Below, one piece after another: positions 4,183 through 23,524 of a DNA stretch of 32,000 nucleotides. Each line of letters begins with the position of its first letter. The first letter of the stretch is position 1. The stretch comes from an uncultured Alphaproteobacteria bacterium (GTDB taxonomy: Bacteria > Pseudomonadota > Alphaproteobacteria > Rs-D84 > CACZYB01). The stretch lies in assembly GCA_934246625.1 (NCBI GenBank), contig CAKQHZ010000002.1, forward strand, positions 60,001 to 92,000, given 5' to 3'. Under the pieces are notes generated by a model. The model did not search any database. It worked only from the letters and a program-made list of their open reading frames with translations, and was not told the origin of the DNA. The position numbers and the translations under genes were made by a program.

Positions 4183-4226
4183 AAACAACATTGTATTATT
4201 AAACTTATAACTAGAAAGGTAAAAAA

Positions 4227-4625: not shown

Positions 4626-4651
4626 CTTTTAAATAAAAAGGGGGTCATAAA

Positions 4652-5176
4652 ATGGTTAAGAAAAACGAAAATGGTTTATCTAAATTTCAAAATAAAATAA
4701 CCAAGGGTTTCATTAACTTTTTTATGACTCTTTCAAAAAACAAAAATCCATTTGAAACAATCGTTGGATTTGCAATATTGTTTATTGCTATATACTTCCT
4801 TATTTGGGGTATTTTATCCGCAAAAACAAACAATATTTCTGGATACAATTTATATACAAATTTCTCATCTATTGGTGGGCTTTCCCGTGGTGCAGATGTT
4901 TCTGTGAACGGAGTAAAGGTTGGTTCTGTGATTGAAACAAAACTAAACCCTATTGATTATACAGTTGATGTAATGATGTCAATCGACAGCAAATATAAAT
5001 TTCCAAAAAATACAACCGCACAAATATCAACTTATGGAATAATTGGTGCAAAATATATAAAACTTGAAATAGGTTCATCAAAGGAACTTATTGAACCAAA
5101 TGGTAAATTACAATCAAAACCATTCAAAACATTAGAAGAAATCATAAGCGATATAATATTCAAAACAAGTAAATAA
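4652..5176 (+). CDS. mlaD: MlaD-family (MCE domain) outer-membrane lipid asymmetry protein
   Basis: N-terminal TM helix (IVGFAILFIAIYFLIWGIL) followed by an MCE-domain pattern (GGLSRGADVSVNGVKVGSV, TYGIIGAKYIKLEIG). SD aaaggggg lies upstream. Confidence 0.8.
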   Translation: MVKKNENGLSKFQNKITKGFINFFMTLSKNKNPFETIVGFAILFIAIYFLIWGILSAKTNNISGYNLYTNFSSIGGLSRGADVSVNGVKVGSVIETKLNPIDYTVDVMMSIDSKYKFPKNTTAQISTYGIIGAKYIKLEIGSSKELIEPNGKLQSKPFKTLEEIISDIIFKTSK

Positions 5177-5178
5177 AG

Positions 5179-5655
5179 ATGACTAAACTAAACTTTAAAT
5201 TGATTTTATGTGTTGCATTTACAATTTTTTCAAATGCAACTTTTGCATTTACAAATATTCCTCAAAACAAGGCAACTATTCGTGCCCTTAACAAACAAAC
5301 TGGTCGCACAAAGGATATTGAAATACCTGTTGGTGAACAAACCATATTTGAAAATATTTTGATTGATATGAAGGCATGCTTCACTCGACCAGAAGATGAA
5401 ACACCTGAAAATTCTTCATTCGTTCAAATTACCGAAATAAATACAGATTTCAAAGAAGAACTTACATCAGTAAAGAAGGGAAATGTAATATTTTCCGGTT
5501 GGATGTTTTCCTCATCTCCAAGTCTTTCTGCAATGGAACACCCAAACTATGATATTTGGCTTTTGGAATGCAGGGACGACCCTCGCTATGCAAAAATAAC
5601 TTTGCCACAAAACATAAACCAAAATTCCAATTCCGAAACAAACGAAATAAATTAG
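5179..5655 (+). CDS. DUF2155 domain protein (periplasmic, signal peptide)
   Basis: Signal peptide, then IRALNKQTGRTKDIEIPVGE and FSGWMFSSSPSLSAMEHPNYDIWLLEC, as I recall for the DUF2155 family that typically follows mlaD in Alphaproteobacteria. Confidence 0.7.
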   Translation: MTKLNFKLILCVAFTIFSNATFAFTNIPQNKATIRALNKQTGRTKDIEIPVGEQTIFENILIDMKACFTRPEDETPENSSFVQITEINTDFKEELTSVKKGNVIFSGWMFSSSPSLSAMEHPNYDIWLLECRDDPRYAKITLPQNINQNSNSETNEIN

Positions 5656-5741
5656 ATATTTTTTAATTTTATCATTGTATTTTTTCTCATAATTCTTTAT
5701 TATTATAAAGATAAAAATTTTTGATAAAAAAAGAGAAAAAA

Positions 5742-6641
5742 ATGGGAAAAAAGAAGAAAAAAGCATCTGAAGAATTCAAAGAAACAATAAAGGCAATATT
5801 TTGGGCTGCAACACTTGCAATAATCATTCGCACTTTTGCAATCGAACCATTTCATATTCCTTCCGATTCAATGATACCAAATTTATTTGTCGGAGACCAT
5901 TTATTCGTATCAAAAATTTCATACGGATATTCCCGCCAATCATTTCCATTTTCTCTTCCTATAATAAAGGACCGTATTTTCTTTACAGAACCAGAAGTTG
6001 GTGATGTAATAGTTTTCAAAAAAATAAAGGGACACCCTGATAATTATATCAAACGACTTATCGGAAAACCAGGTGATAAAATCCAAGTCAAAAATGGCAT
6101 TTTAAACATCAATGGCAAACCTCTTAAACGTGAATATATTGACAAGTTTTTCATTGTAAATCTTCCTTATAATCTAAGGAAATCTGACAGCATCACAATC
6201 ACAACCAAAGATGCTCAAACATTAACAATAATTGATACAAAAAAATTATACCTAAACGGTCGTCCATTAAAAAAGGACCAATATACTATTGCATATAAGG
6301 AAATCCCAAATTTCAAAGGTGAAGCAATCGAACTTAACAAATACAAATACACTCTTCCAAACGGAAAGGAACATTTTGTAATTGAAATAAGTGATTCTGA
6401 ACCAATGGATAACACCCAAGAATATATTGTTCCTAAAAACCACTATTTTATGATGGGTGATAATCGCGATATGTCCGAAGACAGCAGATTTTTGAACGAA
6501 GTCGGATATATTCACCGCCGTGATTTAATCGGACATGCAAACTTAATTTTTTATTCTCATAACAATTCTGTAAACATATTTGAATTTTGGAAATACTTAA
6601 AACCAATCAGATATGAACGACTTTTTAACAAAATAAAATAA
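5742..6641 (+). CDS. lepB: signal peptidase I (S26 family)
   Basis: Catalytic boxes IPSDSMIPNL (Ser), YIKRLIGKPGD (Lys) and GDNRDMSEDSRF. The start is ambiguous: ATG 5742 or in-frame TTG 5721. Confidence 0.93.
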   Translation: MGKKKKKASEEFKETIKAIFWAATLAIIIRTFAIEPFHIPSDSMIPNLFVGDHLFVSKISYGYSRQSFPFSLPIIKDRIFFTEPEVGDVIVFKKIKGHPDNYIKRLIGKPGDKIQVKNGILNINGKPLKREYIDKFFIVNLPYNLRKSDSITITTKDAQTLTIIDTKKLYLNGRPLKKDQYTIAYKEIPNFKGEAIELNKYKYTLPNGKEHFVIEISDSEPMDNTQEYIVPKNHYFMMGDNRDMSEDSRFLNEVGYIHRRDLIGHANLIFYSHNNSVNIFEFWKYLKPIRYERLFNKIK

Positions 6642-8329: not shown

Positions 8330-8860
8330 ATGCCAAGTAATTATTCAGACAGCCCATCAATGGACGAAATTTTAGAACGTATCAAAAGGGCATTATCAGA
8401 CAGAGAAACAAAATCTTCATATTATGAAGAGGAAGAACATTACGAAGTTTCATCTGAATACCCAACAAACAAAAGAAACTCTTCATTATCATTCGAAGAA
8501 ATGAAGGAACTTTCATCATCAAGGGAAATGACAAACAAAATTGTTCAACCTTTGGCAGATGATGACATTTTCATAAAACCAGTCATCACACAAAAAACAA
8601 CCGAAGATGAAATAATAAAACCATTAAAAAAATCTGAAAAACTTAATCAACCAAAAATAAACGATGATGTTTTTGTTCTTACAAAAAGTATGAAAATAAA
8701 TCACAAACTTAACTTTGAAAACGTGGATTTGGATAAACTTTATAAAAACATATCCCTTGAACTTGGTCGAGATTTGGCAATCGCCTATCTGTCCCCAAAA
8801 ATCGAAAGCTGGTTCAAAATCAATATGCCAGATATGATAAAAAAATCACAAAACAAATAA
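8330..8860 (+). CDS. DUF2497 / PopZ-like protein
   Basis: N-terminal SPSMDEILERIKRALSD resembles the PopZ/DUF2497 N-terminal helix (..MEEILASIRRII..). An acidic low-complexity middle and a conserved-looking C-terminal helix region (LSPKIESWFKINMPDMIKK) follow. SD agagggaaaaATG. Confidence 0.55.
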   Translation: MPSNYSDSPSMDEILERIKRALSDRETKSSYYEEEEHYEVSSEYPTNKRNSSLSFEEMKELSSSREMTNKIVQPLADDDIFIKPVITQKTTEDEIIKPLKKSEKLNQPKINDDVFVLTKSMKINHKLNFENVDLDKLYKNISLELGRDLAIAYLSPKIESWFKINMPDMIKKSQNK

Positions 8861-8867
8861 AAATTTA

Positions 8868-8892
8868 CCCCCTTTAAAAGGGGGATTTTTTT
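8868..8892 (+). terminator. Rho-independent terminator between convergent genes
   Basis: Stem ccccctt (8868-8874) pairs with aaggggg (8878-8884), followed by a T7 run. Confidence 0.8.
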
Positions 8893-8894
8893 GA

Positions 8895-10940
8895 TTACTT
8901 CAAACCGCACATACAATTCCTAAATTTAATAGCAGACCTCTTCAACTCTGTAATAGTTGATATTGGGTCAGCCAACTCTGTCCCATCATTTGATGCCCAA
9001 CCAACATACTTTTTCCATTCAGGCAAAGAGGAAGTATCACAATTATTCGGATTTGAAGACATATTTGAAATTATAGTAATAAACTTTTCCGCAACATCTA
9101 ACTCTATTGCCACATTATCAACATACTTAATATTCGGAATACTTGGACATTCCTTTGTAACAGAAGTTGTCGCAACAGAGGACTTTCCTGTGGTTGAAAC
9201 GCCACTACTACTTTTTCTTCCACTACTTGCACCACCACTAGCACAAGCACACTTTTTAATTTGACTCATAACCCCGACAATATCACTTTCACTAGGACAA
9301 GCCCTTCCATTACCAATCTTCTTACACTCATCATAGGCTTTAAACAAACTTATCAACCTTTGCTTTTCATTATTTGTGCAATTTGGTAAAGTATGAGTTT
9401 CCAAAAATGTATCCCACTTTTTCCTTGTTTCATATTTGATGTTAAGGTCTGGCACATCGGCACAATCACCACCACTGCCACCATTACCACCACAAAAAGA
9501 AGCACAATTATTGTATAAATACAATGACGCACCATTTGCATATTGACTTCCAAACTGTGTAAATGATTGTCCGAACACAGAATTGATTCGTCCCAAGGTC
9601 AAAGAAATTTTGTAATCAAAACGACCGGAAGATTCGCCAATACAGAAGAACTCATTACCACCACTGGTAAAACGTTCATACCAATTTCGTGTGCCGAGAT
9701 TCCCACTTGCACAATTTGGGAAAAATACCTTACAAATTCCACCTTTTGTTAAGCTAAAGTTTTGTGATGGCAAAGCACTTGAACAATTTGAAGCCCCACT
9801 TACACCAACAGACGGAGAAGAATAAGGTGATGATGAAGATGGCATTTTCAAATCGGTCAAAGAAACATTATCATCATTATCATTGACCGTAACATTACTT
9901 TTTCCAACGGCTGTCATATCACCAGTTCCAAGCCCCAAATTCAACCCAACGAAATTTGAAAGTTTTGTTTTCACACATTCGCTACTTGTATTGCCTTGTT
10001 CATACCCATACTTACAAACCAATCGGCATTCAGGAGCCCCATCTTCCACAAATTGCCATCTTTCACCACCAACTGGCAAAGGGGAATTAAGGCAGTCCAC
10101 ACTTCTGAACCAATAATTAACAATCTTGTTTGCGGTTGCACGGCCAAGCTCCTCCGCCTGAGCCCTCGCCCTTACATAAGCCAAATTTTCACGATTATCA
10201 AGGTCATAATCATTGACCTTTGTCAAAGAATAATCCTCCTCGCCACAGGCAAGTTCAGCCATTTCCATATATCCAGCCAAAACGCCATCAACAACCTGAC
10301 GCCAATTTTCACGTTTTTTTGTATTTTGCCCAGTCAACAACATATCCATCTGGGCCCCGATATTTGAATCGCCATAATCACCCGCCTTATAAAAACGGTC
10401 CACCATATTTTCATCACGGCTTTGATTATACCCACAAAGAGTTGTCAACTTTGAACGCAAAGAGGCATCAATACTTCCATCAGACGCAATCATTTCCGCC
10501 CAACACTTTTTTGCGGATTCAAGGGCAAGTGAGGCACTTTGACATTCCTTTGTTGACTTTTTCAACGCGGTTTCAATTTTATCCTTTCCCGCAAGCAAAG
10601 AAACAATATAATTATAGGTATAAGCCTTACACCCAGTATTCAAATTCAATTCCTTTATCACGGCACGTGTATCCAAACAATCTTCGACATTAAGTTGTAT
10701 AGTCGAAGCTGACACACTTCCACATTTTGAATACACCCCCTTTTCCAAAGTTTTTTTATCAAAACAATAACGATTAAAACAATAATCAATATTTTCACGA
10801 CATTCTGTTTCAGAAGGGTCCTTTAACTTCACAGAAGAAGTTGTATTTAACGAAGTCCTTTTTTTTGAAGATGTTCTTGCCGCCATAAGGTTCAAAGAGG
10901 CACAAGTCAAACCAATAACAAACACGAAAAATTTTTTCAT
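8895..10940 (-). CDS. large exported cysteine-rich protein D (681 aa), unknown family
   Basis: Signal peptide MKKFFVFVIGLTCASLNLMA|ARTSSKKRTS, then a basic Ser/Thr-rich linker and C-x6-C (ECRENIDYC). I count 31 Cys (30 after the signal peptide). An internal G/S-rich patch is present (CGGNGGSGGDC). No enzymatic or beta-barrel motif recognised. Confidence 0.88.
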   Translation of the reverse strand: MKKFFVFVIGLTCASLNLMAARTSSKKRTSLNTTSSVKLKDPSETECRENIDYCFNRYCFDKKTLEKGVYSKCGSVSASTIQLNVEDCLDTRAVIKELNLNTGCKAYTYNYIVSLLAGKDKIETALKKSTKECQSASLALESAKKCWAEMIASDGSIDASLRSKLTTLCGYNQSRDENMVDRFYKAGDYGDSNIGAQMDMLLTGQNTKKRENWRQVVDGVLAGYMEMAELACGEEDYSLTKVNDYDLDNRENLAYVRARAQAEELGRATANKIVNYWFRSVDCLNSPLPVGGERWQFVEDGAPECRLVCKYGYEQGNTSSECVKTKLSNFVGLNLGLGTGDMTAVGKSNVTVNDNDDNVSLTDLKMPSSSSPYSSPSVGVSGASNCSSALPSQNFSLTKGGICKVFFPNCASGNLGTRNWYERFTSGGNEFFCIGESSGRFDYKISLTLGRINSVFGQSFTQFGSQYANGASLYLYNNCASFCGGNGGSGGDCADVPDLNIKYETRKKWDTFLETHTLPNCTNNEKQRLISLFKAYDECKKIGNGRACPSESDIVGVMSQIKKCACASGGASSGRKSSSGVSTTGKSSVATTSVTKECPSIPNIKYVDNVAIELDVAEKFITIISNMSSNPNNCDTSSLPEWKKYVGWASNDGTELADPISTITELKRSAIKFRNCMCGLK

Positions 10941-11059
10941 TTTCTCTCTCTTTTAAATTAAAATTTCTAAAGTAATTATAAGATATAAAAACGACTTTCT
11001 CAATAAAAAAATAGACATTAAAAAATAACTTGCTATAATCAAAACCAAAGGAGGATAAA

Positions 11060-11500
11060 ATGAAAATTTTAACTGGAACATTATGTGCGTTTTTATTATG
11101 TGGTTGTATCACCCGCGAATACAAATCTGGTATTCCAATACGACAAAGTCAAATAACACAAATAAAAAATGCCACAAGCAAAAAGGACATTTACGAAATT
11201 TTGGGTTCTCCTGCATCAATAAATTTTGTTGGCAATGAAAAATGGTTTTATTACACAGCCGAAGGGGACATATTTGCATTTTTGGATCCAATGTTTTCAA
11301 AATATGAAATACTTTCAATTCAATTTAATGCAAACGATGAAATTGAAAAAATCAAATTAACAAATATAAGTAATAAAAAAATACAGATTAACGAGGATAA
11401 AAAAACACAGCTTCCATCTGCAATCGAATTAAATTTCTTTCAGGAATTATTTGGAAACATTGGAAAATTTAATTCATCTGGTGTTCCAACATCAAATTAA
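11060..11500 (+). CDS. bamE: outer membrane protein assembly factor BamE (SmpA/OmlA lipoprotein)
   Basis: Lipobox LLCGC, then ..KKDIYEILGSPASINFVGNEKWFYY.. and the C-terminal ..FFQELFGNIGKF.. seen in alphaproteobacterial BamE. SD aaggagg lies upstream. Confidence 0.7.
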   Translation: MKILTGTLCAFLLCGCITREYKSGIPIRQSQITQIKNATSKKDIYEILGSPASINFVGNEKWFYYTAEGDIFAFLDPMFSKYEILSIQFNANDEIEKIKLTNISNKKIQINEDKKTQLPSAIELNFFQELFGNIGKFNSSGVPTSN

Positions 11501-11525
11501 AAGGGACAAAATCAATAAATAAAAA

Positions 11526-11558
11526 GGGTGCCGTTTTAAAATTGCACCCCATTTTTCT
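11526..11558. terminator. bidirectional Rho-independent terminator (bamE on + and paralog A on -)
   Basis: Stem gggtgc (11526-11531) pairs with gcaccc (11545-11550). A T-run lies 3' on the plus strand and an A5 run 5' (T5 on the minus strand). Confidence 0.7.
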
Positions 11559-11572
11559 TATTTGAAAAAGTT

Positions 11573-14500
11573 TTAGAATCGATAGATTGACACATCACCA
11601 GGTCCACCACCCCAACCGTAATTCTCACCTACATCACCACAACCACCTCTTCGAATATCATTTGTTCCATGTCTAGAGCCACTTTTTGAACAATCTGAAG
11701 ATTTTTTACCTTCAACATAGTCTAGGTCAGTAGCATTATCACCATTATGACATGACCAATGCATGAACTTTGCTCTAGTATAACTACCTTCAGCACCATT
11801 ACCACCTTCTGATACAATAGAAACTAATTCTGGTATACTAAAACTTGATGAGCCACCTTTACCACCATCACCTGCATCTTTACCTGCCTTAGCTGAACTA
11901 CCACCTTTACCACCAGCACCTACTGTATAGGTAAAGGCTGTATCATTGACAACAATAAATGTTTCATATTTATATTGTCCCCAACCACCATCACCACCAG
12001 ATGTTTGACAACCGAACACACTACCGCCACCGCCACCGCCGGCACCTTGAACAACAACTTTATACACACCTGCGGACAATGTGCCACTTCCGCCTTCCAT
12101 TTTAACCTTTTGTGAATCGGTGTGTTCAAAGCTAAATTCACGAATTTTTGTCTGTATATTCTTCATTGCATTTGATTTATCGAAATCTGGCAAATCAACA
12201 CATGTAAGTTCAGGATATTCCGCATTTGATAATGCATCATAGTTTGCATCACCTGTAATTCCATACGCACTGTTTGGTTTTACATAAACATTACCTGAAG
12301 AATTTGCCTTTACCGTTAATAATTTAAGGGCATTTACAAAATCAAAACCACTAATTGAACTTGAATGATTAACAAAATAATCTGTCATTTGTGAACCAAT
12401 TTCGGAACATTTGTTAAGCACACTGGTTCCATTTGTTTCCATAACTGCACTTTTCATTTTTTCCACATTTGCAAGATATTGTTTATCCTGTTGTGTTTTT
12501 GTGGTATTGGCTTCCATTTCATAATTTGCCTTGTCAATCGCAGTTTGAACCTTTTGTTGTGCTAACTCTGCCTTTGCAGTAATAGTGTTAATTGTTCGGG
12601 TTGCATCATCTTTTTTCAATGCGTTTGCAACATCGGAAATGGTTGTAATATCTTTAACTTTATTTTTAATAATCACAGCCAAAGCATCTTCAAGATAATT
12701 TTTGATTTGTGTATCAAATTTTGCATAGCTTGTATCACGCACAGAAATCAAGTTTGCTTCATACATATCACATGATTTTTTTGCACTCATAAAATCAAGT
12801 TCGGCATAATCGGTATTTGTGTTATATGTTCCATCAGAAGATGGTTCCACATCTGATTTTGGCCAAAAACCTGACAAATAATATCTTTCCAAATCTGCCT
12901 TGTATGTAGCTTTACATGAAGCAAGTAAGGTTTTGTTTTTATTAAATTCACGATAGGTTTGGGCGACAGTTGAACTAACACCGCTTAATGACTTTGTCTT
13001 TCCATCAAAACAATAATTTGAAGCTCTGTTAAACAAAGCACTTGGGAATACCAATCCAGCCCCAAGAGGTGGCACTACGTTAATAGAAAACAAAGAACTA
13101 TCTCTGTTGATACCTAAATCGGTATAAATACTTCTTGCATCTTTTTCCTCTTCTTGTTGAGAGGCAACAAAGCAAGCCTGTGAATTACCACAAGTTGAAT
13201 TTCCCTGACATTTACGGATAAGTTCATTCCATGTTGAACCCGCAGGACATCTTGCACACTTTTTTTGCAAGCTATCATAAGTATCATTGTCTAATGGACA
13301 AGCCTGTGAAGAAGAACTTGTCGTTGAAACAAACTCCGCCGTTGACACATTTGCATCAAAATATTTTTTGTTTTCTGAATCATAAAGTTGGCATGCACCG
13401 ACAGAAGCATTATATTTATATCCATCACTACACTTTGTTGATGTGTTAAGCAAAGATGATATATCAAAAGTTTTAAGTGTTTCCAAACCTAAACCTTCGA
13501 TTCGTTGTTTATAAAGTTCAGAATTTGTGAAATTAACCATCTTAAGTTCACCAGAATCAAGTCGTTTCAATGCCTCCTTATAATATTCCGCAGAAGATGT
13601 TGTTCCAAACACATTTGCAATTTCGGCACGAACCTTTGCATCACCTGTTAAACCATCGGTGTTTGTATCTTCTGATGAAAGGACACAATAATTTGTTTTA
13701 ACACCAATAGCACTTTTAAGTGTGGTATTTCGTAAATCACAATAATAATTATATGCAAAATACAAATCGTTCACATCACGTGCGGAACAATTACTATTTA
13801 CAAAATCTTGATATTCCGAAGAAGTTGCTTGCAAATCTCCTGAATCTTTATAGGTATTTACCAAGACCTTTTCTTTACATAATTTTTGATATGTTTTCCA
13901 ATTATTATCAAAAGTTTTGTTTGCGGATAAAAACGCATTCAAAGTTTTATATTTTTCACAAGTTGCGCAAATTCCTGTTTTTGCCTTTGTATTTAGTGTC
14001 AATGTTGCATCACCAGATTCGGAACAAGTCGCACTTGTCAAATAACTTGAAAATTGGTTGTTTATATATGAATTAATATTGTCCTGAGCAATATTAAAAC
14101 TTGCCAAAGTTGATTCGTTTAACACAGAACGACAACTTGAAACCACCTGCATATTTTGTGGTAATTGGGAATTTGACCTATCATAAAACAAACATCTGAA
14201 AGGTTCCTGTGTATCAAGATAAGCCTGAACCGCTTCATCATCATAAAGATATGTGTATTTATCAATAACATCGTTGATTTGAGAATCCATACATGACACA
14301 AATGCTTCACGACATTTTTGTTCTTCCACCTTTTGAGAAGATGCACTTTCAGAAAGATTTTTACCTATCTTTGATGCCAATGATGATGTTGTTGCGGCAC
14401 GTCTTGTATTTAATCTTGTTTTTGCATTACCACCAGTTGCGGCACGCTTTCTTGAACCTGCTCTTGCAGTTTTTTTAGAAGATGATTTTTTTGCACCAGT

Positions 14501-14635
14501 ATTTGCCTTTCGCACAGATTTTTTTGTTGTTTTTTTAACTTGTGAAAAAGCAATATCAACATATGAAGTAAATGAAATCATTACTGCAATAAAATAAACA
14601 AGAATATGCTTTAACATTTTTTTAATCATTTTCAT
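11573..14635 (-). CDS. large exported cysteine-rich protein, tandem paralog A (1020 aa) with C-terminal glycine-rich domain; function unknown
   Basis: Signal peptide (..FIAVMISFTSYVDIAFS|QVKK), a ~75-aa Lys/Arg/Ser/Ala/Thr linker, and a motif scaffold shared with B and C (CREAFVSCMDSQI, PFRCLFYD, LYFAYNYYCD, LFSINVVPPLGAG, LERYYLSG, SAKKSCDMYE, CVDLPDF). I count 28 Cys. The start ATG overlaps the stop of B (ATGA). Confidence 0.92.
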   Translation of the reverse strand: MKMIKKMLKHILVYFIAVMISFTSYVDIAFSQVKKTTKKSVRKANTGAKKSSSKKTARAGSRKRAATGGNAKTRLNTRRAATTSSLASKIGKNLSESASSQKVEEQKCREAFVSCMDSQINDVIDKYTYLYDDEAVQAYLDTQEPFRCLFYDRSNSQLPQNMQVVSSCRSVLNESTLASFNIAQDNINSYINNQFSSYLTSATCSESGDATLTLNTKAKTGICATCEKYKTLNAFLSANKTFDNNWKTYQKLCKEKVLVNTYKDSGDLQATSSEYQDFVNSNCSARDVNDLYFAYNYYCDLRNTTLKSAIGVKTNYCVLSSEDTNTDGLTGDAKVRAEIANVFGTTSSAEYYKEALKRLDSGELKMVNFTNSELYKQRIEGLGLETLKTFDISSLLNTSTKCSDGYKYNASVGACQLYDSENKKYFDANVSTAEFVSTTSSSSQACPLDNDTYDSLQKKCARCPAGSTWNELIRKCQGNSTCGNSQACFVASQQEEEKDARSIYTDLGINRDSSLFSINVVPPLGAGLVFPSALFNRASNYCFDGKTKSLSGVSSTVAQTYREFNKNKTLLASCKATYKADLERYYLSGFWPKSDVEPSSDGTYNTNTDYAELDFMSAKKSCDMYEANLISVRDTSYAKFDTQIKNYLEDALAVIIKNKVKDITTISDVANALKKDDATRTINTITAKAELAQQKVQTAIDKANYEMEANTTKTQQDKQYLANVEKMKSAVMETNGTSVLNKCSEIGSQMTDYFVNHSSSISGFDFVNALKLLTVKANSSGNVYVKPNSAYGITGDANYDALSNAEYPELTCVDLPDFDKSNAMKNIQTKIREFSFEHTDSQKVKMEGGSGTLSAGVYKVVVQGAGGGGGGSVFGCQTSGGDGGWGQYKYETFIVVNDTAFTYTVGAGGKGGSSAKAGKDAGDGGKGGSSSFSIPELVSIVSEGGNGAEGSYTRAKFMHWSCHNGDNATDLDYVEGKKSSDCSKSGSRHGTNDIRRGGCGDVGENYGWGGGPGDVSIYRF

Positions 14636-16644
14636 TTCCCTTCATTTTCATTTTCTTTTGACACACTTTTATCTGGGAAAGTTTCTTCTAAATGCTTTTT
14701 AACTTGATCCTTTACAGTAGCCCCATAACTTGTTTCCAAATTACCAGGTAAATTAGAAAGGAATGCTAACTTATAACTAAATGTTGGAATATCAACACAA
14801 TAAATTTGATAATATCCAGCAGTCTTACCCTTATCCGCACTTCCATTTGAAATTGCAATATATTTATCATAATTGGAATCTGATGAAGGGATAACATCAC
14901 CTTCACGGTTAATTTTAACTGACTTTGCCTTTAGATTACCAATCCAATTCCAAAATTGAGATTTAACTTCATCTTTTGAAAAGCAAGAAGCTCCACTACT
15001 TCCACAATCAGTATTATAACTATTCAAAATCATAGTAGAACACTTTGTCAATGCTGGTGTAGCATAAGTAGAAGCGAAAGTTGATGCCAATTCCTTTTGT
15101 GAAGATGCCTTTTGCACAGCAACATTTGACAATGTCAAATTATATTCAGATTCGGCCAATGCAGCATCACCCTCAGCCTTTAATTTAGCCATTGCCATTT
15201 CACTTTCAACCTTTGAACGTTCATTTGTAATTTGGTTATCTAACTTTTTCAAATTTGTTTCAGCAGCAGCAAGTGAAGCAGTAGACTTCATCTTCTTTTT
15301 TACCATTTTTGCAAGATTATCTTCAATCCAATTTTGCATTTGGTTATCAAATTCACCATACTTTTTATCACGTGTAGAAATCAAAGCCTGTTCATATAAA
15401 CCACAACTTTCCTTTGCAGAAAAGAAAGCGGATGTAATATCTTCGGTTGTTCCACCTTCTATTTGATTACCATTGTCATCAACCTTTACACCTTCCCATT
15501 TTCCAGACAAATAATATCTTTGAAGGTTATCTTTTAAAGATATACAATTATTTGAATTAAATTGAGCAATTTGTTTATTTCGCGTGCGAATTGCTTCCTT
15601 TTGTGCAGTTGTTCCAACAACTTCAGAAGCCTCCGTCTTTAAACAATTATTTGAAGCTGTATTAAATTGAGCACTTGCCAAATAAGCATTTGCCCCAATC
15701 GGTGGCACAACATTAATAGAAAATAATTCCGTTTCATCCTCTAAATTTAATTGATTAAAAATTTCTGAACCAATTTTACCGTTAATAACATAAGAATCTT
15801 CATTTTCCAAATCAAGTTGGTTAATAAAATTTTTATAAATAGTAGAACTTTCAAGGTTAATCATTTGAAGTCCATCATTACTCATACGTTTCAAAACTTC
15901 ATTATAATAAGCAACACTATACTTTGTTGCAAAATTTGAACCTGCAGACAAATCGCATTGATTTATCTTTCTTCCAATATTGTTTTTTAATTTACGTTGA
16001 ATATCACAAAAATAATTATATGAATTATAAAGTTCATTCACACCACGTTGAGTATAACAACTTTCTTCTGTGATACCAATACAAGTTTTTTTATCATCAT
16101 TTAAAGCAGACGTATTTGATTTTAAAACATTTGAATTTGGGTCATAAAATACACATCTGAAAGGTTGACCAGTTTCAAGTGCAAGCTCCACAGATTCATC
16201 ATCACTTAAAAAAGAATACTTTGAAAGAGTGCTTGAAATTTGATTATCCATACAATCCACATAAAGATTGATACAAGTTTGTTCTGATGCAGTTGTATTA
16301 TCATTTAACTGATTCATAAATGATAAACTTTTACCAATAGTTGTTCTTACAGTTGCGGCACGTCTTGAATTTCTTCTGGAATTTCTAGTTGTTGCGGCAC
16401 GCCTACTATTTTTTCCAGACAAAGTTCTTTTCTTTGATGTTGCCTGTCTTTTTACACCAGCAGAAGATTTTCTTACACCTGAAGATGAGTTTGATTTCTT
16501 TCTGGCGCCACCTGCTTTTCTTACTGTTTTCTTTGCCACCTTTCTAGGTGCAGCACCCACAGGCAAAGAAACTGAAAGCACAGTAATTCCAGAATATAAA
16601 AATACCAACAATGGTATCATAAATTTTTTTAATACTAACTTCAT
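14632..16644 (-). CDS. large exported cysteine-rich protein, tandem paralog B (~670 aa), shortest member; function unknown
   Basis: Signal peptide MKLVLKKFMIPLLVFLYSGITVLSVSLPVGA|APRK, a basic linker with RRAAT repeats, and the same motif scaffold (CINLYVDCMDNQI, PFRCVFYD, LYNSYNYFCD, ELFSINVVPPIGA, LQRYYLSG, SAKESCGLYE, IYCVDIPTF). I count 14 Cys. The start is ATG 16644 or upstream TTG 16656. Confidence 0.9.
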   Translation of the reverse strand: MKLVLKKFMIPLLVFLYSGITVLSVSLPVGAAPRKVAKKTVRKAGGARKKSNSSSGVRKSSAGVKRQATSKKRTLSGKNSRRAATTRNSRRNSRRAATVRTTIGKSLSFMNQLNDNTTASEQTCINLYVDCMDNQISSTLSKYSFLSDDESVELALETGQPFRCVFYDPNSNVLKSNTSALNDDKKTCIGITEESCYTQRGVNELYNSYNYFCDIQRKLKNNIGRKINQCDLSAGSNFATKYSVAYYNEVLKRMSNDGLQMINLESSTIYKNFINQLDLENEDSYVINGKIGSEIFNQLNLEDETELFSINVVPPIGANAYLASAQFNTASNNCLKTEASEVVGTTAQKEAIRTRNKQIAQFNSNNCISLKDNLQRYYLSGKWEGVKVDDNGNQIEGGTTEDITSAFFSAKESCGLYEQALISTRDKKYGEFDNQMQNWIEDNLAKMVKKKMKSTASLAAAETNLKKLDNQITNERSKVESEMAMAKLKAEGDAALAESEYNLTLSNVAVQKASSQKELASTFASTYATPALTKCSTMILNSYNTDCGSSGASCFSKDEVKSQFWNWIGNLKAKSVKINREGDVIPSSDSNYDKYIAISNGSADKGKTAGYYQIYCVDIPTFSYKLAFLSNLPGNLETSYGATVKDQVKKHLEETFPDKSVSKENENEGK

Positions 16645-16712
16645 CTTTCCGTCCAACTATCCATATATTAAAGATATAACAGAAATTACCAAAAGTCAAT
16701 AAGTTATCAACA

Positions 16713-16740
16713 TAAAAAAAGAAGGGTCAAAGCCCTTCTC
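16713..16740 (-). terminator. Rho-independent terminator between paralog C and paralog B
   Basis: On the minus strand, agaaggg pairs with cccttct (16720-16726 / 16733-16739) and is followed by a T7 run (plus-strand A7 at 16714-16720). A TTGACT -35-like hexamer (16699-16694, minus) lies just downstream. Confidence 0.75.
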
Positions 16741-16750
16741 TTAAAATAAA

Positions 16751-19405
16751 TTATTTTTCTTTTCCTTCTTCCTCTTTATTTTCATCCGTCTTTGTGGAAT
16801 TAAGTATATCATCAGCACCAAGGACAACAGCTGTCACATTTTGGTCAAATAATTCCTTACCACGACCCATATAATGACCTTTTAACGCAGGAAGTTCAAT
16901 TGTTTTACTACTTGATTCTTTTACAAGACCTAAGAACTTTTCTGTTTTTGTTCGTTGTGTAACAACACACTTTCCATTTTCAATTCTTTGGTTATCATAT
17001 GAAACTTTTTTACTACCACCAAACATAGAAGAAATGAATCCTATAGCAGCTGGTATTCCACCAAGGACATTACCTCCTGCAATAATAGAAAGCCCAGCCA
17101 AAGCAAAACTACTTTTTACTCTTTCTATTGCAGTATTTGTTTCACTACCATTTGGTTTACCAGCAACACTAACATTTGATTTTTCATTTTCTTCATCGGC
17201 TTGTTTTTGTAAATCTTCCAAAACCTTTATCAATAATTCATTTTTACCAGTGCAAGAATATTCAAGCATACCATCATAAAGAATACTCATTGCATATCTT
17301 GATGGTTCCATAATTGATGTTTTAAAGTATGGAGCATCAACACAATAAATTTCAGTATATCCATCTGGCAAAGCAGAAGATGTTGTGGTTGTATTGCCAT
17401 TTGCGTCCATTGTTGTAACAGTCGCATCTTTTACATCGCCATCACGATTGATATAAATACTTTGAATATTCAAAAGGTTTGAAAGTTCTTCTAACTTCTT
17501 TGGTGATTTAAGGTTCATAAAGAAGTTATCCATACCTTGAATACATTCGGCATAATTTTCACCACAAACTGCACGCATAGAACTCATAACTTTAGGAGTG
17601 CAATAATTTGCAATTTGTCTTGGATATGTATCTGTGTAAAGTTTTGCACGTTCTTTACGTTGAGCGATAAGACTTTTATCAACTTCAAGTTTTTTCATAT
17701 CAAGATTAAGGTTTGCATTAAGAATTGCAATTTCCGCCTCTGATTTTGCATTTGCAATTTCCGCACGCATATTTGCAAGGTTAATTGAAATATCTGCATC
17801 TGCTTGTTGTAAAGATTGGAAAGAAGATGCAATAGTTTTAAGATCTTTTGTCTTTTTCTTAACAAGTTTTGCAACCTCATCCTCAATATAGTTTTTAAGA
17901 TAAGTATCAAAATTTGCATATTGAGTATTACGCACAGAAATCATAGTATTTTCATACATATCACATGATTTTTTTGCACTTAAGAAATCTGATTGAACAA
18001 GAAACATTTGGTCATAAGTCAATTCGTCTTCTGTTGTAATTTCTGTTTTTGGAGCAAGGTTATAAAGTGAAGTTTTATCTTCATCAATACCCTTTTCCTC
18101 TGCTTCTTTAGCTATCTTTGATTCAATAGTTCTGTTTTCACCATTAAAACTACATTTATTTGTTTTTTGGTTATATTCATAAGAAGCTGGACAATAAACC
18201 TTTGCAGTTCCAGCAAGGTAATATCTTTCCAAATCGCTACGAACTTCGGCTTCACCACAATTTGTAAGTATAGAAATATCTGACTTTATAGTTTTTTCAT
18301 CTTCAGTCAAAGTTTTTCCAGCAGGTTTAAACACCTGTGCACCAAAGCAAATATCACTTGCCTTTTGGAAAATACCACTTGCATTTAAACTTCCTGCGCC
18401 AACAGGTGGCACAACATTGATAGAAAATAATTCACTATCAGAAGATGCCAATCCCAAATCTTCCATCAAATCGGAAACTGAATTTGTTTCTGAGCATGTG
18501 CAACCAGCACTTCCTTCTTGACAAGATTTGTTATCACTATCAACACAAGTCTTACTTGTCAAACTCATCATATCCCAATTTTCAAGGTCAAGTTTTGAAA
18601 TTTTATTTTTAAAAAGATTTGTTTGTTCAAAGTTAATAATTTTAAGTTCACCCGCTTGAACACGTCTATTTGCTTCGGCATAGTAAGCAGCAGAATCCTT
18701 TGTCGCAAACACATTATTTTTGCTTTTACCACCATTTGAATATTGTTTTATATTACATTTATTTACTGGCATACCAGCCACACCAACTTCTGATGTATCC
18801 AAATCACAATAATAATTATATGACATATAAAGTTCATTTATATCCTTTTGATTTGAACAAAAGTTATAATTATTAAAGGCATTTTCCTTACCAATTTTAT
18901 TTAATGACAAATCAACCTTTCCACTTGTTGAATTGATAAGGTTATCATTTCTTTTTGACATTTGTTCTTCTGAACAATATTTAGAAGTTGTTGCATCACC
19001 AAACAAATTATCAACATTACTTGAATTATAATAAATACAACGCAATGGGTCATTTGTTTCTTGCATAGCTTGAACACCTTGGTCATCAGCCAAATAGCTA
19101 TAAGATGCAATTATATTATTGATTTGCAAATCCATACATTCTGTATATGCGGAACGACAATCCTTTTTTGCTGAACCACTTGAAGTTGTTCCAGTCGCAA
19201 TAACACCACGACCAGCAGTTCTTCCTGCTTGACGTTTGTTTCCAACACTTCTCACAGACTTTTTAGAAGAGCCACCTCTTGATGCTTGACGTTTTGTTGA
19301 TTTTTTACCAGATGATTTTGAAGTTTTTCTCGCCGCAAATGCAGGCAAAGTAAATTCACCAATAAAAGTAAATAAACTAAGGAAAACTATAAAATTTTTA
19401 AACAT
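16751..19405 (-). CDS. large exported cysteine-rich protein, tandem paralog C (~884 aa) with C-terminal glycine-zipper hydrophobic segment; function unknown
   Basis: SD GGGAGA lies 7 nt before ATG 19405 (the track's TTG 19420 is probably too early). Signal peptide MFKNFIVFLSLFTFIGEFTLPAFA|ARKTSK, a basic linker, and the scaffold motifs (CRSAYTECMDLQI, PLRCIYYN, LYMSYNYYCD, ELFSINVVPPVGA, LERYYLAG, SAKKSCDMYE, IYCVDAPYF). I count 22 Cys. Confidence 0.92.
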   Translation of the reverse strand: MFKNFIVFLSLFTFIGEFTLPAFAARKTSKSSGKKSTKRQASRGGSSKKSVRSVGNKRQAGRTAGRGVIATGTTSSGSAKKDCRSAYTECMDLQINNIIASYSYLADDQGVQAMQETNDPLRCIYYNSSNVDNLFGDATTSKYCSEEQMSKRNDNLINSTSGKVDLSLNKIGKENAFNNYNFCSNQKDINELYMSYNYYCDLDTSEVGVAGMPVNKCNIKQYSNGGKSKNNVFATKDSAAYYAEANRRVQAGELKIINFEQTNLFKNKISKLDLENWDMMSLTSKTCVDSDNKSCQEGSAGCTCSETNSVSDLMEDLGLASSDSELFSINVVPPVGAGSLNASGIFQKASDICFGAQVFKPAGKTLTEDEKTIKSDISILTNCGEAEVRSDLERYYLAGTAKVYCPASYEYNQKTNKCSFNGENRTIESKIAKEAEEKGIDEDKTSLYNLAPKTEITTEDELTYDQMFLVQSDFLSAKKSCDMYENTMISVRNTQYANFDTYLKNYIEDEVAKLVKKKTKDLKTIASSFQSLQQADADISINLANMRAEIANAKSEAEIAILNANLNLDMKKLEVDKSLIAQRKERAKLYTDTYPRQIANYCTPKVMSSMRAVCGENYAECIQGMDNFFMNLKSPKKLEELSNLLNIQSIYINRDGDVKDATVTTMDANGNTTTTSSALPDGYTEIYCVDAPYFKTSIMEPSRYAMSILYDGMLEYSCTGKNELLIKVLEDLQKQADEENEKSNVSVAGKPNGSETNTAIERVKSSFALAGLSIIAGGNVLGGIPAAIGFISSMFGGSKKVSYDNQRIENGKCVVTQRTKTEKFLGLVKESSSKTIELPALKGHYMGRGKELFDQNVTAVVLGADDILNSTKTDENKEEEGKEK

Positions 19406-19552
19406 ATATCCATCTCCCAATTTTCACATAAAATTCTAATATATATTTTTTCTCTTAATTATATTACAATCATTCGAAACAAAAGTAAATAATTTTATTG
19501 ATTTTTCTCATATTTTTTTGTAAAAGATATATGTCAAAATGAAAGGGAGAAA

Positions 19553-21268
19553 ATGAATATATTTATGATTCTTATTATGGCTGTTATGCTAGGAATGTAT
19601 CAATACTTTACTGCAAAAAAGTCATCTGAAGTAACATTAAATAAAGAAGAACGAGCTTTCGAAGTTGAACTTAACTGTCTTAAACAATTTCATGATTATG
19701 GAGCATCACGAAACGAAGCACAACTTACATCTGGTCCAATAAATCCAAATTATACCTGTGCTGGACACGAAAATATAAAAATGTATAAATATTGCCTTAA
19801 TAATAACGTTGAAACACCTTGTTCTGAAACATCAATCACAGAACATTGCGTTGCAACCACTATGGCAAAGGAAAAATTGGATAATTCATTAAAAGCACTC
19901 CTTTTTCAAAAGGGTATTGATGAAATAAAGGCTGGAAATCTAATAAAAGGAAAAAAAATATCAGCACAAAATCACCCTGTATCAACAGTTGCCTCAACAT
20001 CTTTTGGACTTACAACCTGTGTTCCTGCTGAACGTATTTCACAAAATGAAAAACTTGCAAAGGATAATTGTGCAAAGGAAGGTAAATTTGCCACACTTAA
20101 AGCTGATGGTTCTTTTGAATGCACCGATGTGCCAGAAGTTTCCGAATGCACCGCACACGAAGATTCTGTTGTAAATATATCTGGTCGTCAAAATTGCACT
20201 GGTCCTATAAATGGTAAATATTGTTGTGCAAAAATCAATCTTGAAAAAACTGTTTGTGGAAGCGATCCAAACATCAAAGCAACATGGAACGCAAATACTC
20301 GTTTTTATAATTGCACAACTGGTGAAGAAACCTGTAATGTAAAAGATAATGTTATGGACGTTGTTGATGAAAACAATACAAAGAAAGACGAAATAATAAT
20401 CAAAAAAGATTCAACCGATAAATTTTATATTGCAAAATATAATACAACAAAAAAGGCATGGGATTGTATTCCAAATTCACGATTACTTATCGACCTTTGT
20501 AAATCAAAAACATTGGAAAACGAACTTGCATACGTTTCTGTTTCCGACCTTTCTGTTTCAAATGGAAAGCCTGTATGTAAAGGAGCATCAAGCAAAGCGC
20601 CAAGTGCTGTTGAAACTTGTTCTGCTTGTGGTATTCCAACACTTAACAAATCAACAAACCAATGGTATTGCAAATACCCAAATTGGAACACCGAATTAAA
20701 AAATAATCCAACCGCAATGAACAATTACATAAACACCGTCTACAAAGCATCTGGTATAAATAATAAGGGTATTGAAGCCTGCTTTAGAGGCTGTTCTGCA
20801 GATATGATAAACAAATTAAGACAAGGTGTTGTAAATGGACTTTTATGGGGATTAACCTGGAATAACAACTCAAAGCTATTTGAATGCTTTAAATGTGGAG
20901 ATTATTCAAATGAAAATGGTTCTTCTTTCTATAATGGTGCATATATAAACAACCTATGTAAAAATGGAAACTTTTCATCAACTCCAGCATCCGTTTGCAT
21001 AGATAATAAGTATTCCGATGCTACTTGCACAAATTCTGAAATCAACGGAAGATGTGTTATAAAATGTTGTAATGACTTATATCAAAAACGTGGAACAGAT
21101 GGTAAATGTTATACAAAATGGTGCCGAAAAATTCCTGCTGAAATAAATGCAGTTATCAACAAACCACAAGAAAAAGTATGTCCAAAAACACACCCTCGTT
21201 CTATATATAATTCAGTTCAGGATTGTGTATATTGCATAAAAACACCACCTGTATCAACAGATAAATAA
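19553..21268 (+). CDS. exported or membrane-anchored cysteine-rich protein E (571 aa), unknown family
   Basis: SD agggag lies before the ATG. The N-terminus is uncharged and hydrophobic (MNIFMILIMAVMLGMYQYF), a signal sequence or signal anchor. I count 36 Cys (about 6% of residues) spread over the whole length, including CC, CxxC and CxC pairs. It is transcribed divergently from paralog C. Confidence 0.88.
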   Translation: MNIFMILIMAVMLGMYQYFTAKKSSEVTLNKEERAFEVELNCLKQFHDYGASRNEAQLTSGPINPNYTCAGHENIKMYKYCLNNNVETPCSETSITEHCVATTMAKEKLDNSLKALLFQKGIDEIKAGNLIKGKKISAQNHPVSTVASTSFGLTTCVPAERISQNEKLAKDNCAKEGKFATLKADGSFECTDVPEVSECTAHEDSVVNISGRQNCTGPINGKYCCAKINLEKTVCGSDPNIKATWNANTRFYNCTTGEETCNVKDNVMDVVDENNTKKDEIIIKKDSTDKFYIAKYNTTKKAWDCIPNSRLLIDLCKSKTLENELAYVSVSDLSVSNGKPVCKGASSKAPSAVETCSACGIPTLNKSTNQWYCKYPNWNTELKNNPTAMNNYINTVYKASGINNKGIEACFRGCSADMINKLRQGVVNGLLWGLTWNNNSKLFECFKCGDYSNENGSSFYNGAYINNLCKNGNFSSTPASVCIDNKYSDATCTNSEINGRCVIKCCNDLYQKRGTDGKCYTKWCRKIPAEINAVINKPQEKVCPKTHPRSIYNSVQDCVYCIKTPPVSTDK

Positions 21269-21274
21269 AAAACA

Positions 21275-21297
21275 ATCCCTTTGAAAAACAAAGGGAT
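21275..21297. terminator. hairpin terminator between convergent genes E and xer
   Basis: Stem atcccttt (21275-21282) pairs with aaagggat (21290-21297), then ttatttt. An A-rich run lies 5' for the opposite strand. Confidence 0.7.
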
Positions 21298-22218
21298 TTA
21301 TTTTGCATGTGGGTGAGCCCTCTTATACGTTTTTATAACTTCGTTCATATTCAATTTGGTATAAAGCTGTGTTGTTGAAAGTGAGCTATGTCCCAACAAT
21401 TCTTGAATAGTCCGCAAATCAGTTCCATTTAACAATAACTGTGTTGCAAAACTATGTCTTAAACTATGTGGAGTAGTTTCCTTTGGAAGCCCAACATAAT
21501 TTCTTGCCTTTTCAATATCTCGCTCTGCAACTCGAGGAGTAAGTCTTGCCCCTCTGCTTCCACGGAAAATTGGGTCATTCATTCGAAAATCAAATGGTGC
21601 CACCTTTAAATACTCATCAATAACATCTGTTATAATTGGCAACAATGGAACAATTCGTGTTTTATTTCCTTTACCTTTTATAACCAAAACATCAACATTT
21701 TTTATATCTGAAAGGTTAAGATTTAACGCCTCTGAAATACGAAGACCTGCCCCATAAATAAGTGTGAACAAAGCCTTATCACGTTTGGCTTGCCACTTTT
21801 CAAGAATAACCAAATCAAAGCTATCAAGAAGTTTTATTACATCAACCCCATCAACCGCCTTTGACAATCGCTTTGGCACCTTTGGAGATTTTAAAATTTC
21901 TATATTCGAATTCCTTGCAATATCATTTTCATTTACAAATTTAAAAAAATTCTTAATACTTGAAATTGTTCGTGCAATACTGGTTGCACTTAATTCCTTT
22001 TCACAGTCATTTTTAATATGTGCAACAAATCCACGAAATTCAGTAATGGAAATATGCTCCAAATCTTTCTCAGTCAAATTATTTTTATTATATATTTGAT
22101 AAAGATAAGCAATAAATTTATTAAAATCGCGATTGTATCCTTTCACTGTATTTTCCGAAACTCTTCGTTCAGATTTCAAAAAATCCAACCACATATTTTT
22201 TATTTGAATTATATCCAT
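21298..22218 (-). CDS. site-specific tyrosine recombinase, XerC/XerD family
   Basis: N-terminal core-binding region (FLKSERRVSENTVKGYNRDFNKF). Catalytic residues sit in GAGLRISEAL (Arg), PHSLRHSFATQLL (His-x-x-Arg) and LGHSSLSTTQLYTKL (His, Tyr). Confidence 0.88.
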   Translation of the reverse strand: MDIIQIKNMWLDFLKSERRVSENTVKGYNRDFNKFIAYLYQIYNKNNLTEKDLEHISITEFRGFVAHIKNDCEKELSATSIARTISSIKNFFKFVNENDIARNSNIEILKSPKVPKRLSKAVDGVDVIKLLDSFDLVILEKWQAKRDKALFTLIYGAGLRISEALNLNLSDIKNVDVLVIKGKGNKTRIVPLLPIITDVIDEYLKVAPFDFRMNDPIFRGSRGARLTPRVAERDIEKARNYVGLPKETTPHSLRHSFATQLLLNGTDLRTIQELLGHSSLSTTQLYTKLNMNEVIKTYKRAHPHAK

Positions 22219-23220: not shown

Positions 23221-23507
23221 CTGGACGGTCAGAGAACTGCTGTATGTTTGGCATATAGAGGAAAGTCCGGACACCACAAGGGAAAGATAATGGGTAATGC
23301 CCATCAGGAGTAATCCGAGGATAAGAGCCACAGAGACGAGCCTGTTAAGTCAGGGTGAAACGCGGCAATCTCTATCTGGTGCAAGACTAAACAGGATAGC
23401 GTTGAGTGCCCTTGGGAGCTATCGGGTAAGTCGCAAAGAGTTATACAGCAATGTATATCCAAGATGAATAGTTCTCTAACACAGAATCCGGCTTATAGAC
23501 TGTCCAT
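23221..23507 (+). ncRNA. rnpB: RNase P RNA, bacterial type A, unusually short (about 287 nt)
   Basis: Universally conserved blocks AGAGGAAAGTCCGGAC (about 23257-23272) and ACACAGAATCCGGCTTATAG (about 23480-23499). P1 pairing is tggacggtc (23222-23230) with gactgtcca (23498-23506). P2 pairing is agagaact with agttctct. GGGTGAAA and CCAAGATGAATAG blocks are also present. Confidence 0.92.
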
Positions 23508-23524
23508 TTTTATAAGGTAAAAAT

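Follow-up and report, generated by a model that had tools for sequence, protein, structure and literature searches.

Cysteine-rich proteins of three orphan families in an alphaproteobacterial gene cluster, a candidate envelope, surface or adhesion system

Introduction

What are five large, cysteine-rich proteins doing side by side among the housekeeping genes of an uncultured alphaproteobacterium? The genes, designated A to E, form a 12.4-kb cluster on contig CAKQHZ010000002.1, within a stretch of 32,000 nucleotides (positions 60,001 to 92,000) that was analysed as a whole and is referred to below as the window. The original prediction, made from the letters alone, took their products for exported proteins of no recognisable family whose cysteines are all paired in disulfides, with a role in the envelope and the function left open. 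The five genes are real, conserved and functional; they are under purifying selection, yet evolve fast. Their products belong to three families that have no relative in Pfam, NCBIfam or PDB. The cluster is read here, with confidence that is about evenly divided, as a lineage-specific, disulfide-stabilised cell-envelope, surface or adhesion system built from these orphan families; the functional steps of this reading are inferred from protein anatomy, gene linkage and rate patterns.

Three protein families

Proteins A, B and C are paralogues (BLASTP among them E 1e-40 to 2e-67; A against B and C 1e-40 to 6e-43). D and E are unrelated to this ABC family and to each other according to both BLAST and profile–profile comparison; in the latter, the ABC, D and E families shared nothing beyond signal peptides. 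The proteins remain mostly orphan, as had been claimed, but they represent three families (ABC, D and E) and not five independent ones. The claim that no family could be matched stands for B, C, D and E, for which Pfam and NCBIfam scans gave no match, and falls for one part of A. Residues 858–1012 of A match the Pfam family Gly_rich_2 (PF21722) at E 8.3e-8, scoring 32.9 bits where the cut-off is 24.3; this is the sole match to a curated family passing its cut-off among the five proteins. Autotransporter, two-partner secretion (TPS), RTX and known toxin domains were absent from the NCBIfam and Pfam scans of all five. A scan against PHROGs gave only weak tail-fibre and minor-tail matches, all of them to the Gly-rich domain of A (phrog_863, E 3.5e-4, and phrog_356, E 2.6e-3, from the ‘tail fiber assembly’ and ‘minor tail protein’ families). 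When 36 distant members of the ABC family were scanned with Pfam, Gly_rich_2 was found in five, together with one low-complexity match to HC2.

Searches at the level of structure gave a similar picture. Neither the sequence-profile searches of PDB with the ABC, D and E family profiles nor a search of PDB sequences with the Gly-rich domain of A alone returned a match, and Foldseek comparison of the AlphaFold models, the confident model of E included, found nothing in PDB and BFVD. Confident profile matches of most members to characterised families, which would have counted against an orphan system, were not found. The three families, the unmatched fold of E and the two gene modules described below (E with the ABC genes; D with bamE) are not described in the literature searched; cysteine-rich envelope proteins or adhesins whose N-termini are basic and whose tips vary are, in general, a known kind.

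The domain architecture of A, D and E is included in Table 1. B is the minimal paralogue of the ABC family, composed of a signal peptide, a polycationic tail and a core, and it lacks the Gly-rich domain. C starts with a signal peptide (...PAFA↓ARK; the arrow marks the cleavage site), continues with a polycationic tail and a core and ends in a divergent C-terminus, where a Gly-rich hydrophobic stretch (SSFALAGLSIIAGGNVLGGIPAAIGFISSMFGG) occupies residues ~770–810. The C orthologues of loci L001 and L007 carry a Gly_rich_2 domain at the position of this stretch, which could represent a tip that has degenerated or a segment that inserts into a membrane. An AlphaFold2 (AF2) model of the B core is mostly helical, with helices spanning core residues 295–432, at a predicted local distance difference test (pLDDT) score of 59. 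A, C and D contain insertions of short Cys-Pro hairpins of the form C-P-x-G-x-x-[YFW]-[ND]-x5-C. The relative P0008 has a match to Pfam CBM_14 that is confined to the C-terminal half of the profile (positions 28–53 of 53, E 1.2e-6); the corresponding value for A is E 0.55.

D combines a constant N-domain with a variable C-terminal half and carries an EGF-like hairpin, CRLVCKYGYEQGNTSSEC. The mature proteins of D relatives contain 25 to 48 cysteines; in D orthologues the C-terminal half has 12–34 of them, while the N-domain stays constant. The ectodomain of E is a Cys-rich α/β structure (AF2 pLDDT mostly 82–96 over residues ~30–450), preceded by a nearly invariant hydrophobic segment in which residues Y16, Q17, Y18, F19, T20 and K22 are invariant in relatives.

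Export signals, disulfides and polycationic tails

Signal peptides were judged by the manual n-h-c rule, with small residues required at positions −3 and −1. The hydrophobic N-termini and the Lys/Arg/Ser/Thr-rich stretches behind them are as originally described. Sites of the signal peptidase I type are present in A (AFS↓Q), B (VGA↓A), C (AFA↓A) and D (LMA↓A), and the −3/−1 pattern is kept in the orthologues of A–D (VFA↓Q, VSS↓Q, LNA↓A and others). The presence of lepB in the window is in keeping with export. The proposal of a signal N-terminus in all five proteins is borne out for these four, with a conserved cleavage pattern, and has to be modified for E, which has an anchor-like N-terminus without an AXA site. 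This N-terminus looks like an uncleaved signal anchor, so that E would be membrane-anchored and not secreted. Signal-type N-termini are thus present throughout. A type IV pilin or pseudopilin reading of E was rejected, as its start (MNIFMILIMAVMLGMYQYFTAK) lacks the G↓F...E5 pattern, which the PilS-type pilin of L014 does show; a lipoprotein reading of D was rejected as well, since the cysteine in its signal peptide (GLTC) is not part of a lipobox and is missing from orthologues.

A recount reproduced the cysteine numbers reported earlier for the mature proteins (Table 1). Cysteines make up 2.1–6.3% of the residues of A–E, against 0.8% for the 22 other open reading frames (ORFs) of the window pooled; the exception among the latter is a zinc-binding deaminase of 166 aa with 4.8% Cys. 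The argument that an even number of cysteines betrays disulfide pairing was extended to about 100 relatives, and it generalises. The mature cysteine number is even in 92/100 (D 37/40, A 8/9, B 12/12, C 17/20, E 18/19); several odd numbers come from fragments. Since parity is kept although the number in complete relatives spans 12 to 48, complete disulfide pairing is strongly, if indirectly, indicated, which implies an extracytoplasmic location and argues against cytoplasmic metal binding. The pattern indicates that cysteines have been gained and lost in pairs, presumably forming disulfides outside the cytoplasm. Between the window and the close strain L016, G918C and W960C arise together in A and raise the number of cysteines in its Gly-rich domain from four to six, apparently the gain of one disulfide through a pair of changes. 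The cysteines are also conserved in orthologues, with 10 invariant positions in the ABC family, ~32/36 in E and ~17 in D.

The tails that begin directly behind the cleavage site are 76 residues long in A, 92 in B and 58 in C and contain 22, 26 and 17 Lys/Arg, respectively, against 1–3 Asp/Glu. The net charge amounts to +19 in A, +24 in B (residues 32–123) and +16 in C (residues 25–82). The tails are rich in Ser/Thr, often with KRAA(T)-type repeats, and a polycationic tail was found in every ABC relative; that of D is a short version. A 411-aa orphan in L001 (20897–22132, minus strand) and L007 (22758–23993, minus strand) likewise has a Lys/Arg/Ser/Thr-rich tail behind a signal-like N-terminus; it contains only 4–5 Cys and has no match in Pfam. 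In this lineage, the polycationic tail may serve more widely for sorting or anchoring.

Distribution and conserved gene modules

Homologues are few. In an index of 5.8 billion proteins, A has 8, E 13 and D 38, all unnamed, and when 1.84 billion proteins were searched exhaustively with a hidden Markov model of the ABC core, 61 representatives were found. All named relatives are annotated as ‘hypothetical protein’ and come from metagenome-assembled genomes (MAGs) labelled Alphaproteobacteria, Rickettsiales or ‘bacterium’; relatives are restricted to MAGs of uncultured, mostly gut-derived Alphaproteobacteria. The viral contigs searched contained none. A phage origin of the cluster was rejected on these and other grounds, namely the lack of a tblastn match in phage genomes, a guanine–cytosine (GC) content like that of the flanks and stable chromosomal synteny.

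The genes co-occur and stay linked, with synteny holding in more than ten MAGs or contigs. The even parity and the synteny lie well outside what chance would produce. All five are found together, with equal cysteine counts, in L001, L004, L005, L007 and L016, and partial sets lie at contig ends in L006, L008, L012 and L013. Gene order differs from that of the window in most loci; two divergent pairs never change. The D/bamE pair is divergent in L001, L004, L007, L009, L012, L013, L014 and L016, of which L009 and L014 are distant, and it is kept wherever D lies inside a contig. The pair of E and an ABC-family gene is divergent in L001, L004, L005, L007, L010, L012, L013, L016 and L017; it is kept in L010 and L017 although E is only 26–31% identical there. 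In the MAG J6J27, hundreds of genes separate D from E on a single 588-kb contig, from which it follows that the cluster consists of two modules that co-occur and are adjacent in this clade. The unit is therefore better seen as a pair of conserved divergent modules, one of D and bamE, the other of E and C-B-A. Within the latter, the stop codon of B overlaps the start codon of A (ATGA), and overlap or abutment is kept in L001, L004, L006 and L007, which argues for co-translation of B and A.

Several observations concern the neighbours of these genes at particular loci. A 290-aa membrane protein of the window (31125–31997, plus strand), with coiled-coil-like sequence and a C-terminal CPYCG motif, has homologues in L017 (5119–5991, minus strand; 57% identical), where it adjoins E, and in L004 (20100–21032, plus strand), where it is a few kilobases from A; it may be part of the E/ABC module. 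In L002 (1–6924 and 13829–14408), a relative with 58% GC, two ABC-family genes are followed by a BrnT/BrnA toxin–antitoxin pair, and PilO-like, T2SSE and T2SSF genes lie ~3–10 kb from the ABC genes, with accA/accD, HU and PAP2 genes in between. A link to a type IV pilus or type II secretion system (T2SS) is not supported, given these intervening housekeeping genes and a window without such genes. L014 encodes a type IVb PilS-type pilin (3348–3851, plus strand; leader G↓RSIVE; Pfam PilS, E 1e-6) and, 3′ of it, a 662-aa orphan with 18 Cys (4032–6020, plus strand), ~4 kb from the bamE–D pair. At L011, the 937-aa protein encoded next to the ABC gene proved to be UvrA.

Strain variation

Strain L016 is close to the window, with a synonymous divergence (dS) of ~0.01–0.02. 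In this comparison the non-synonymous divergence (dN) is zero for bamE, rnc, mlaD, DUF2155, rplS, trmD, rimM, rpsP and the PopZ-like gene; lepB is the exception among the housekeeping neighbours, with dN/dS 0.50. The five genes have dN/dS values of 0.16–0.57, the highest being the overall value of A. The changes in A are concentrated at one end, with 40/49 differences falling inside residues 872–1004, in the stretches between the Gly motifs. Its Gly-rich domain has dN 0.18 and dS 0.15 (ratio 1.23), whereas the ratio is 0.10 for the first 860 residues. Glycine occupies 25/35 of the conserved columns of this domain, which is thus a fixed glycine scaffold with variable inserts. D follows the same pattern; compared with strain P0023, it has 129 differences in residues 451–681 and three in residues 1–350. 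A fixed N-terminal part with a swappable C-terminal part is what would be expected if the former anchors or assembles the protein and the latter faces the outside. The hypervariable C-termini of A and D, judged by this pattern, favour an adhesin or a role in host or partner interaction over a purely internal matrix.

Comparison with known systems

Several kinds of system share features with the cluster. The chlamydial protein OmcB, a component of the outer membrane complex of chlamydiae (COMC) together with OmcA and MOMP, has the same succession of signal peptide, basic N-terminal stretch and large Cys-rich body as A, B and C and, more weakly, D; OmcB belongs to, and the cluster presumably to, a host- or partner-dependent Gram-negative bacterium. 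The basic stretch of OmcB, with XBBXBX motifs, is a surface-exposed adhesin for heparan-sulfate-like glycans (PMC2229832). However, none of the five proteins matches a chlamydial family in Pfam or NCBIfam, even at E≤1, and the tails of the ABC family are much longer (58–92 aa, +16 to +24), Ser/Thr-rich and furnished with KRAA-type repeats. The bodies are largely helical and come as three paralogues plus two further families, and intermolecular cross-linking is not indicated in A–E.

The gp38-type adhesins at phage tail-fibre tips owe their choice of receptor to hypervariable segments, and their glycine-rich motifs build a polyglycine type II (PGII) sandwich (PMC12032242). In sequence layout, the C-terminal domain of A resembles them, as it alternates conserved Gly motifs with strain-variable segments. 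It differs in being chromosomal and cellular, in ending an exported protein of 1020 aa and in having 4–6 Cys; a tblastn search of 50,697 phage records found no match to it, with the reservation that the low-complexity filter may mask the query. Gly_rich_2 itself, present in A, in the C orthologues of L001 and L007 and in the distant ABC-family members mentioned above, is defined by Pfam as a ‘glycine-rich domain’ with no function assigned and covers 15% of one of the five proteins. The Cys-Pro hairpins of A, C and D recall the Cys-rich variant surface proteins (VSPs) that gut protists such as Giardia carry, and EGF- or peritrophin-like disulfide hairpins, by analogy, not homology; the similarity concerns partial domains only, and a CXXC periodicity is missing.

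A possible surface system and its alternatives

The role in the envelope that was originally proposed is supported by these results: the searches, the N-termini, the conserved cysteines and the linkage of the genes all agree with it. According to the reading preferred here, A, B and C would be exported and would assemble through their conserved helical core, with B and A translationally coupled. The assembly may be a fibre or stalk-like adhesin with the Gly-rich domain at its distal end, and this domain of A is a candidate receptor-binding tip, analogous to gp38 adhesins. The polycationic tails could stick to polyanions, either those of the cell's own envelope, which would make them an anchor, or those of mucin, glycans or a partner-cell surface, which would make them an adhesin. 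E, presumably tethered to the inner membrane, could be a dedicated periplasmic partner of ABC for assembly, anchoring or export, and D another surface protein, associated with the outer membrane, exposing a C-terminal region that can be swapped and co-regulated with bamE. Dense disulfides would give resistance to proteases and mechanical stress in the gut.

A more far-reaching version, offered tentatively, is that the cluster encodes a previously undescribed attachment apparatus that holds genome-reduced, non-respiring gut Alphaproteobacteria to a partner cell or to mucus. In this apparatus a heteromeric stalk of A, B and C would be locked by disulfides, stand on polycationic feet and carry a polyglycine tip that can be swapped; the inner-membrane base would be E, and D would be an outer-membrane component associated with the β-barrel assembly machinery, none of the folds having a solved relative.

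A number of points weigh against a surface or adhesion system, or against parts of it. The adhesion role and the surface exposure are both inferred, with no homology that links the proteins to adhesion. The window contains no autotransporter, TPS, type I secretion system or T2SS gene, so that the proteins could stay periplasmic, and dense positive charge immediately after a signal peptide hinders Sec export in Escherichia coli. The elevated dS of the A tip (0.15) is as suggestive of cassettes exchanged by recombination as it is of positive selection. The low confidence of the ABC-core model (pLDDT 59) leaves any heteromeric fibre a conjecture, and distant genomes have only one ABC paralogue (L009, L010, L017) or two (L002). 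The adjacency of bamE, too, may reflect only a shared promoter region.

As a first alternative, the proteins could stay inside the envelope and make up a structural lattice, periplasmic or associated with the outer membrane and comparable to the complex of chlamydiae, in which intermolecular disulfides stiffen a reduced-genome cell and the basic tails bind peptidoglycan or anionic lipids, with no adhesin role. The high and conserved cysteine content, the membrane anchor of E, the conserved D/bamE linkage, the mlaD, lepB and outer-membrane protein genes of the window and the fact that no outer-membrane secretion machinery was seen in it are all in keeping with such a lattice, for which the architecture of OmcB is a precedent. 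It is the main alternative but a less likely one, since even parity fits fully paired, probably intramolecular disulfides better than free cross-linking cysteines, and hypervariable ends (dN/dS >1 at the A tip; the C-terminus of D) are not expected of an internal scaffold. Gly_rich_2 and the tail-fibre-like tip also suggest ligand recognition, and Rs-D84 genomes, if that taxon applies, retain peptidoglycan and rod-shape genes (PMC12306168).

The same division into conserved N-terminal and variable C-terminal regions in A and D, in large proteins with signal peptides, might be thought to betray secreted effectors or polymorphic-type toxins, with an N-terminal delivery part and a variable C-terminal part acting on competitor or host cells. 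This is quite improbable: toxin, peptidase and nuclease domains were absent from Pfam, NCBIfam and PHROGs scans (PADLOC was not searched), A and D are followed not by a small immunity-type gene but by bamE and the PopZ-like gene, the chromosomal context is stable and the genes are absent from viral contigs. Moreover, the variable part of A keeps its fixed Gly-motif scaffold, as binding domains do. Least credible of all, and very improbable indeed, is that the proteins are not exported but are membrane-tethered in the cytoplasm, their basic segment held inside by the positive-inside rule and their cysteines binding metals. The very basic segment directly behind the hydrophobic one in A–C would agree with this, as would E, which has Lys/Arg after its transmembrane segment, no N-terminal charge and several CxxC pairs. 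Even parity in 92/100 relatives at counts of 12–48 is a signature of disulfides and not of metal sites, the AXA-type sites are conserved in A–D, histidines are few and Pfam found no Zn-ribbon or Fe-S match.

The setting in which a surface or adhesion system would work is suggested by the relatives, as the low-GC gut MAGs that carry them appear to resemble the Rs-D84 or ‘Candidatus Enterousia’ group. Genomes of the order Rs-D84 are below 1 Mb, lack respiration and are presumed to reflect a partner-dependent lifestyle; they encode many hypothetical membrane-bound proteins, proposed to mediate cell–cell interaction (PMC12306168). According to the same 2025 study, these bacteria probably rely on their neighbours, and no way of making contact is known for them (PMC12306168). 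A cluster of 12.4 kb would take up more than 1% of a genome smaller than 1 Mb; being conserved, and variable in the places where a ligand would be encountered, it is a concrete candidate for such contact machinery. The pairwise gain and loss of cysteines in an anaerobe also raises the question of how disulfides are formed without a respiratory quinone pool. If the function is only structural, the significance is more modest.

The locus and its surroundings

All five ORFs are present exactly where, and on the strands on which, they had been reported (Table 1). Alternative TTG starts lie upstream of B (at 16656) and C (at 19420). That only bamE interrupts the five genes was confirmed with Pfam, as was the presence of lepB, mlaD and a Xer-type recombinase gene nearby. 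The window has a low GC content (~0.29–0.39), and the surroundings of the cluster are housekeeping and envelope genes (acrB-type, rpsP, rimM, trmD, rplS, mlaD, DUF2155, lepB, rnc); further neighbours in the window are the Xer-type recombinase, tadA-like, ftsJ, outer-membrane β-barrel and gltX genes. Pfam did not bear out the ‘DUF2497’ label given earlier to ORF 8330–8860 (plus strand), which has no match even at E≤1; this ORF still adjoins the cluster in L001, L005, L007, L008, L009 and L016.

Table 1. Features of the cluster, with positions in the window, residue ranges and strands; the arrow marks the predicted cleavage site.
Feature	Window position	Residues	Strand	Remarks
Terminator-like hairpin	8868..8884			bidirectional; D end of cluster; consensus scan
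Gene D	8895..10940		-	681 aa, 31 Cys in total (30 mature)
D signal peptide		1-20	-	...NLMA↓ARTS
D basic Ser/Thr tail		21-46	-	short
D N-domain	9966-10823	~40-325	-	conserved, all-helical, Cys-containing; AF2 pLDDT 80-94
D C-terminal half	8898-9965		-	variable, Cys-rich
D–bamE divergent spacer	10941..11059			two back-to-back sigma-70-like sites, the best in the region
bamE	11060..11500		+	146 aa; Pfam BamE, E 6.7e-6; conserved divergent neighbour of D
Gene A	11573..14635		-	1020 aa, 28 Cys
A signal peptide		1-31	-	...IAFS↓QVKK
A polycationic Ser/Thr tail	14315-14542	32-107	-	net +19
A core	12131-14314	108-~835	-	Cys-containing, LFSINVVPP motif, long helices
A Gly-rich C-terminal domain	11576..12064	858-1020	-	conserved Gly motifs and strain-variable segments
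Gene B	14632..16644		-	670 aa, 14 Cys
Terminator-like hairpin	16717..16742		-	between C and B; consensus scan only
Gene C	16751..19405		-	884 aa, 22 Cys
C–E divergent spacer	19406..19552			divergent E/ABC-family arrangement conserved
Gene E	19553..21268		+	571 aa, 36 Cys
E N-terminal anchor	19553-19618		+	MNIFMILIMAVMLGMYQYFTAK; nearly invariant hydrophobic, without AXA site
Terminator-like hairpin	21274..21298			bidirectional; between E and Xer-type recombinase gene

The sigma-70-like sites in the spacer between D and bamE (10975–11003, minus strand; 11012–11039, plus strand) have 11/12 matches each. The total number of such sites in the region is not above shuffle expectation, and the promoter and terminator scan as a whole does not go beyond chance.

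The RNA genes of the window comprise a tRNA-Gly gene and an RNase P RNA of class A (23221–23511, plus strand; 217 bits). With 291 nt against the 367 positions of the model, the latter is a shortened version, as in reduced genomes. An ORF of 298 aa (26675–27571, plus strand) has an N-terminal hydrophobic segment and a HEATH (HExxH) motif, along with a weak match, below the cut-off, to DUF6782 (putative metallopeptidase; E 0.0017). Two tandem paralogous orphan ORFs of 455 and 425 aa (28203–29570 and 29583–30860, both on the plus strand) contain six Cys each and have no Pfam match. Their signal peptides (...AYA↓QTT and ...ALS↓QTT) are followed by a Gln/Pro-rich N-terminal region, and their C-termini (...LRLIF and ...LKYMF) resemble the β-signal of outer-membrane proteins; they are probably lineage-specific outer-membrane barrels.

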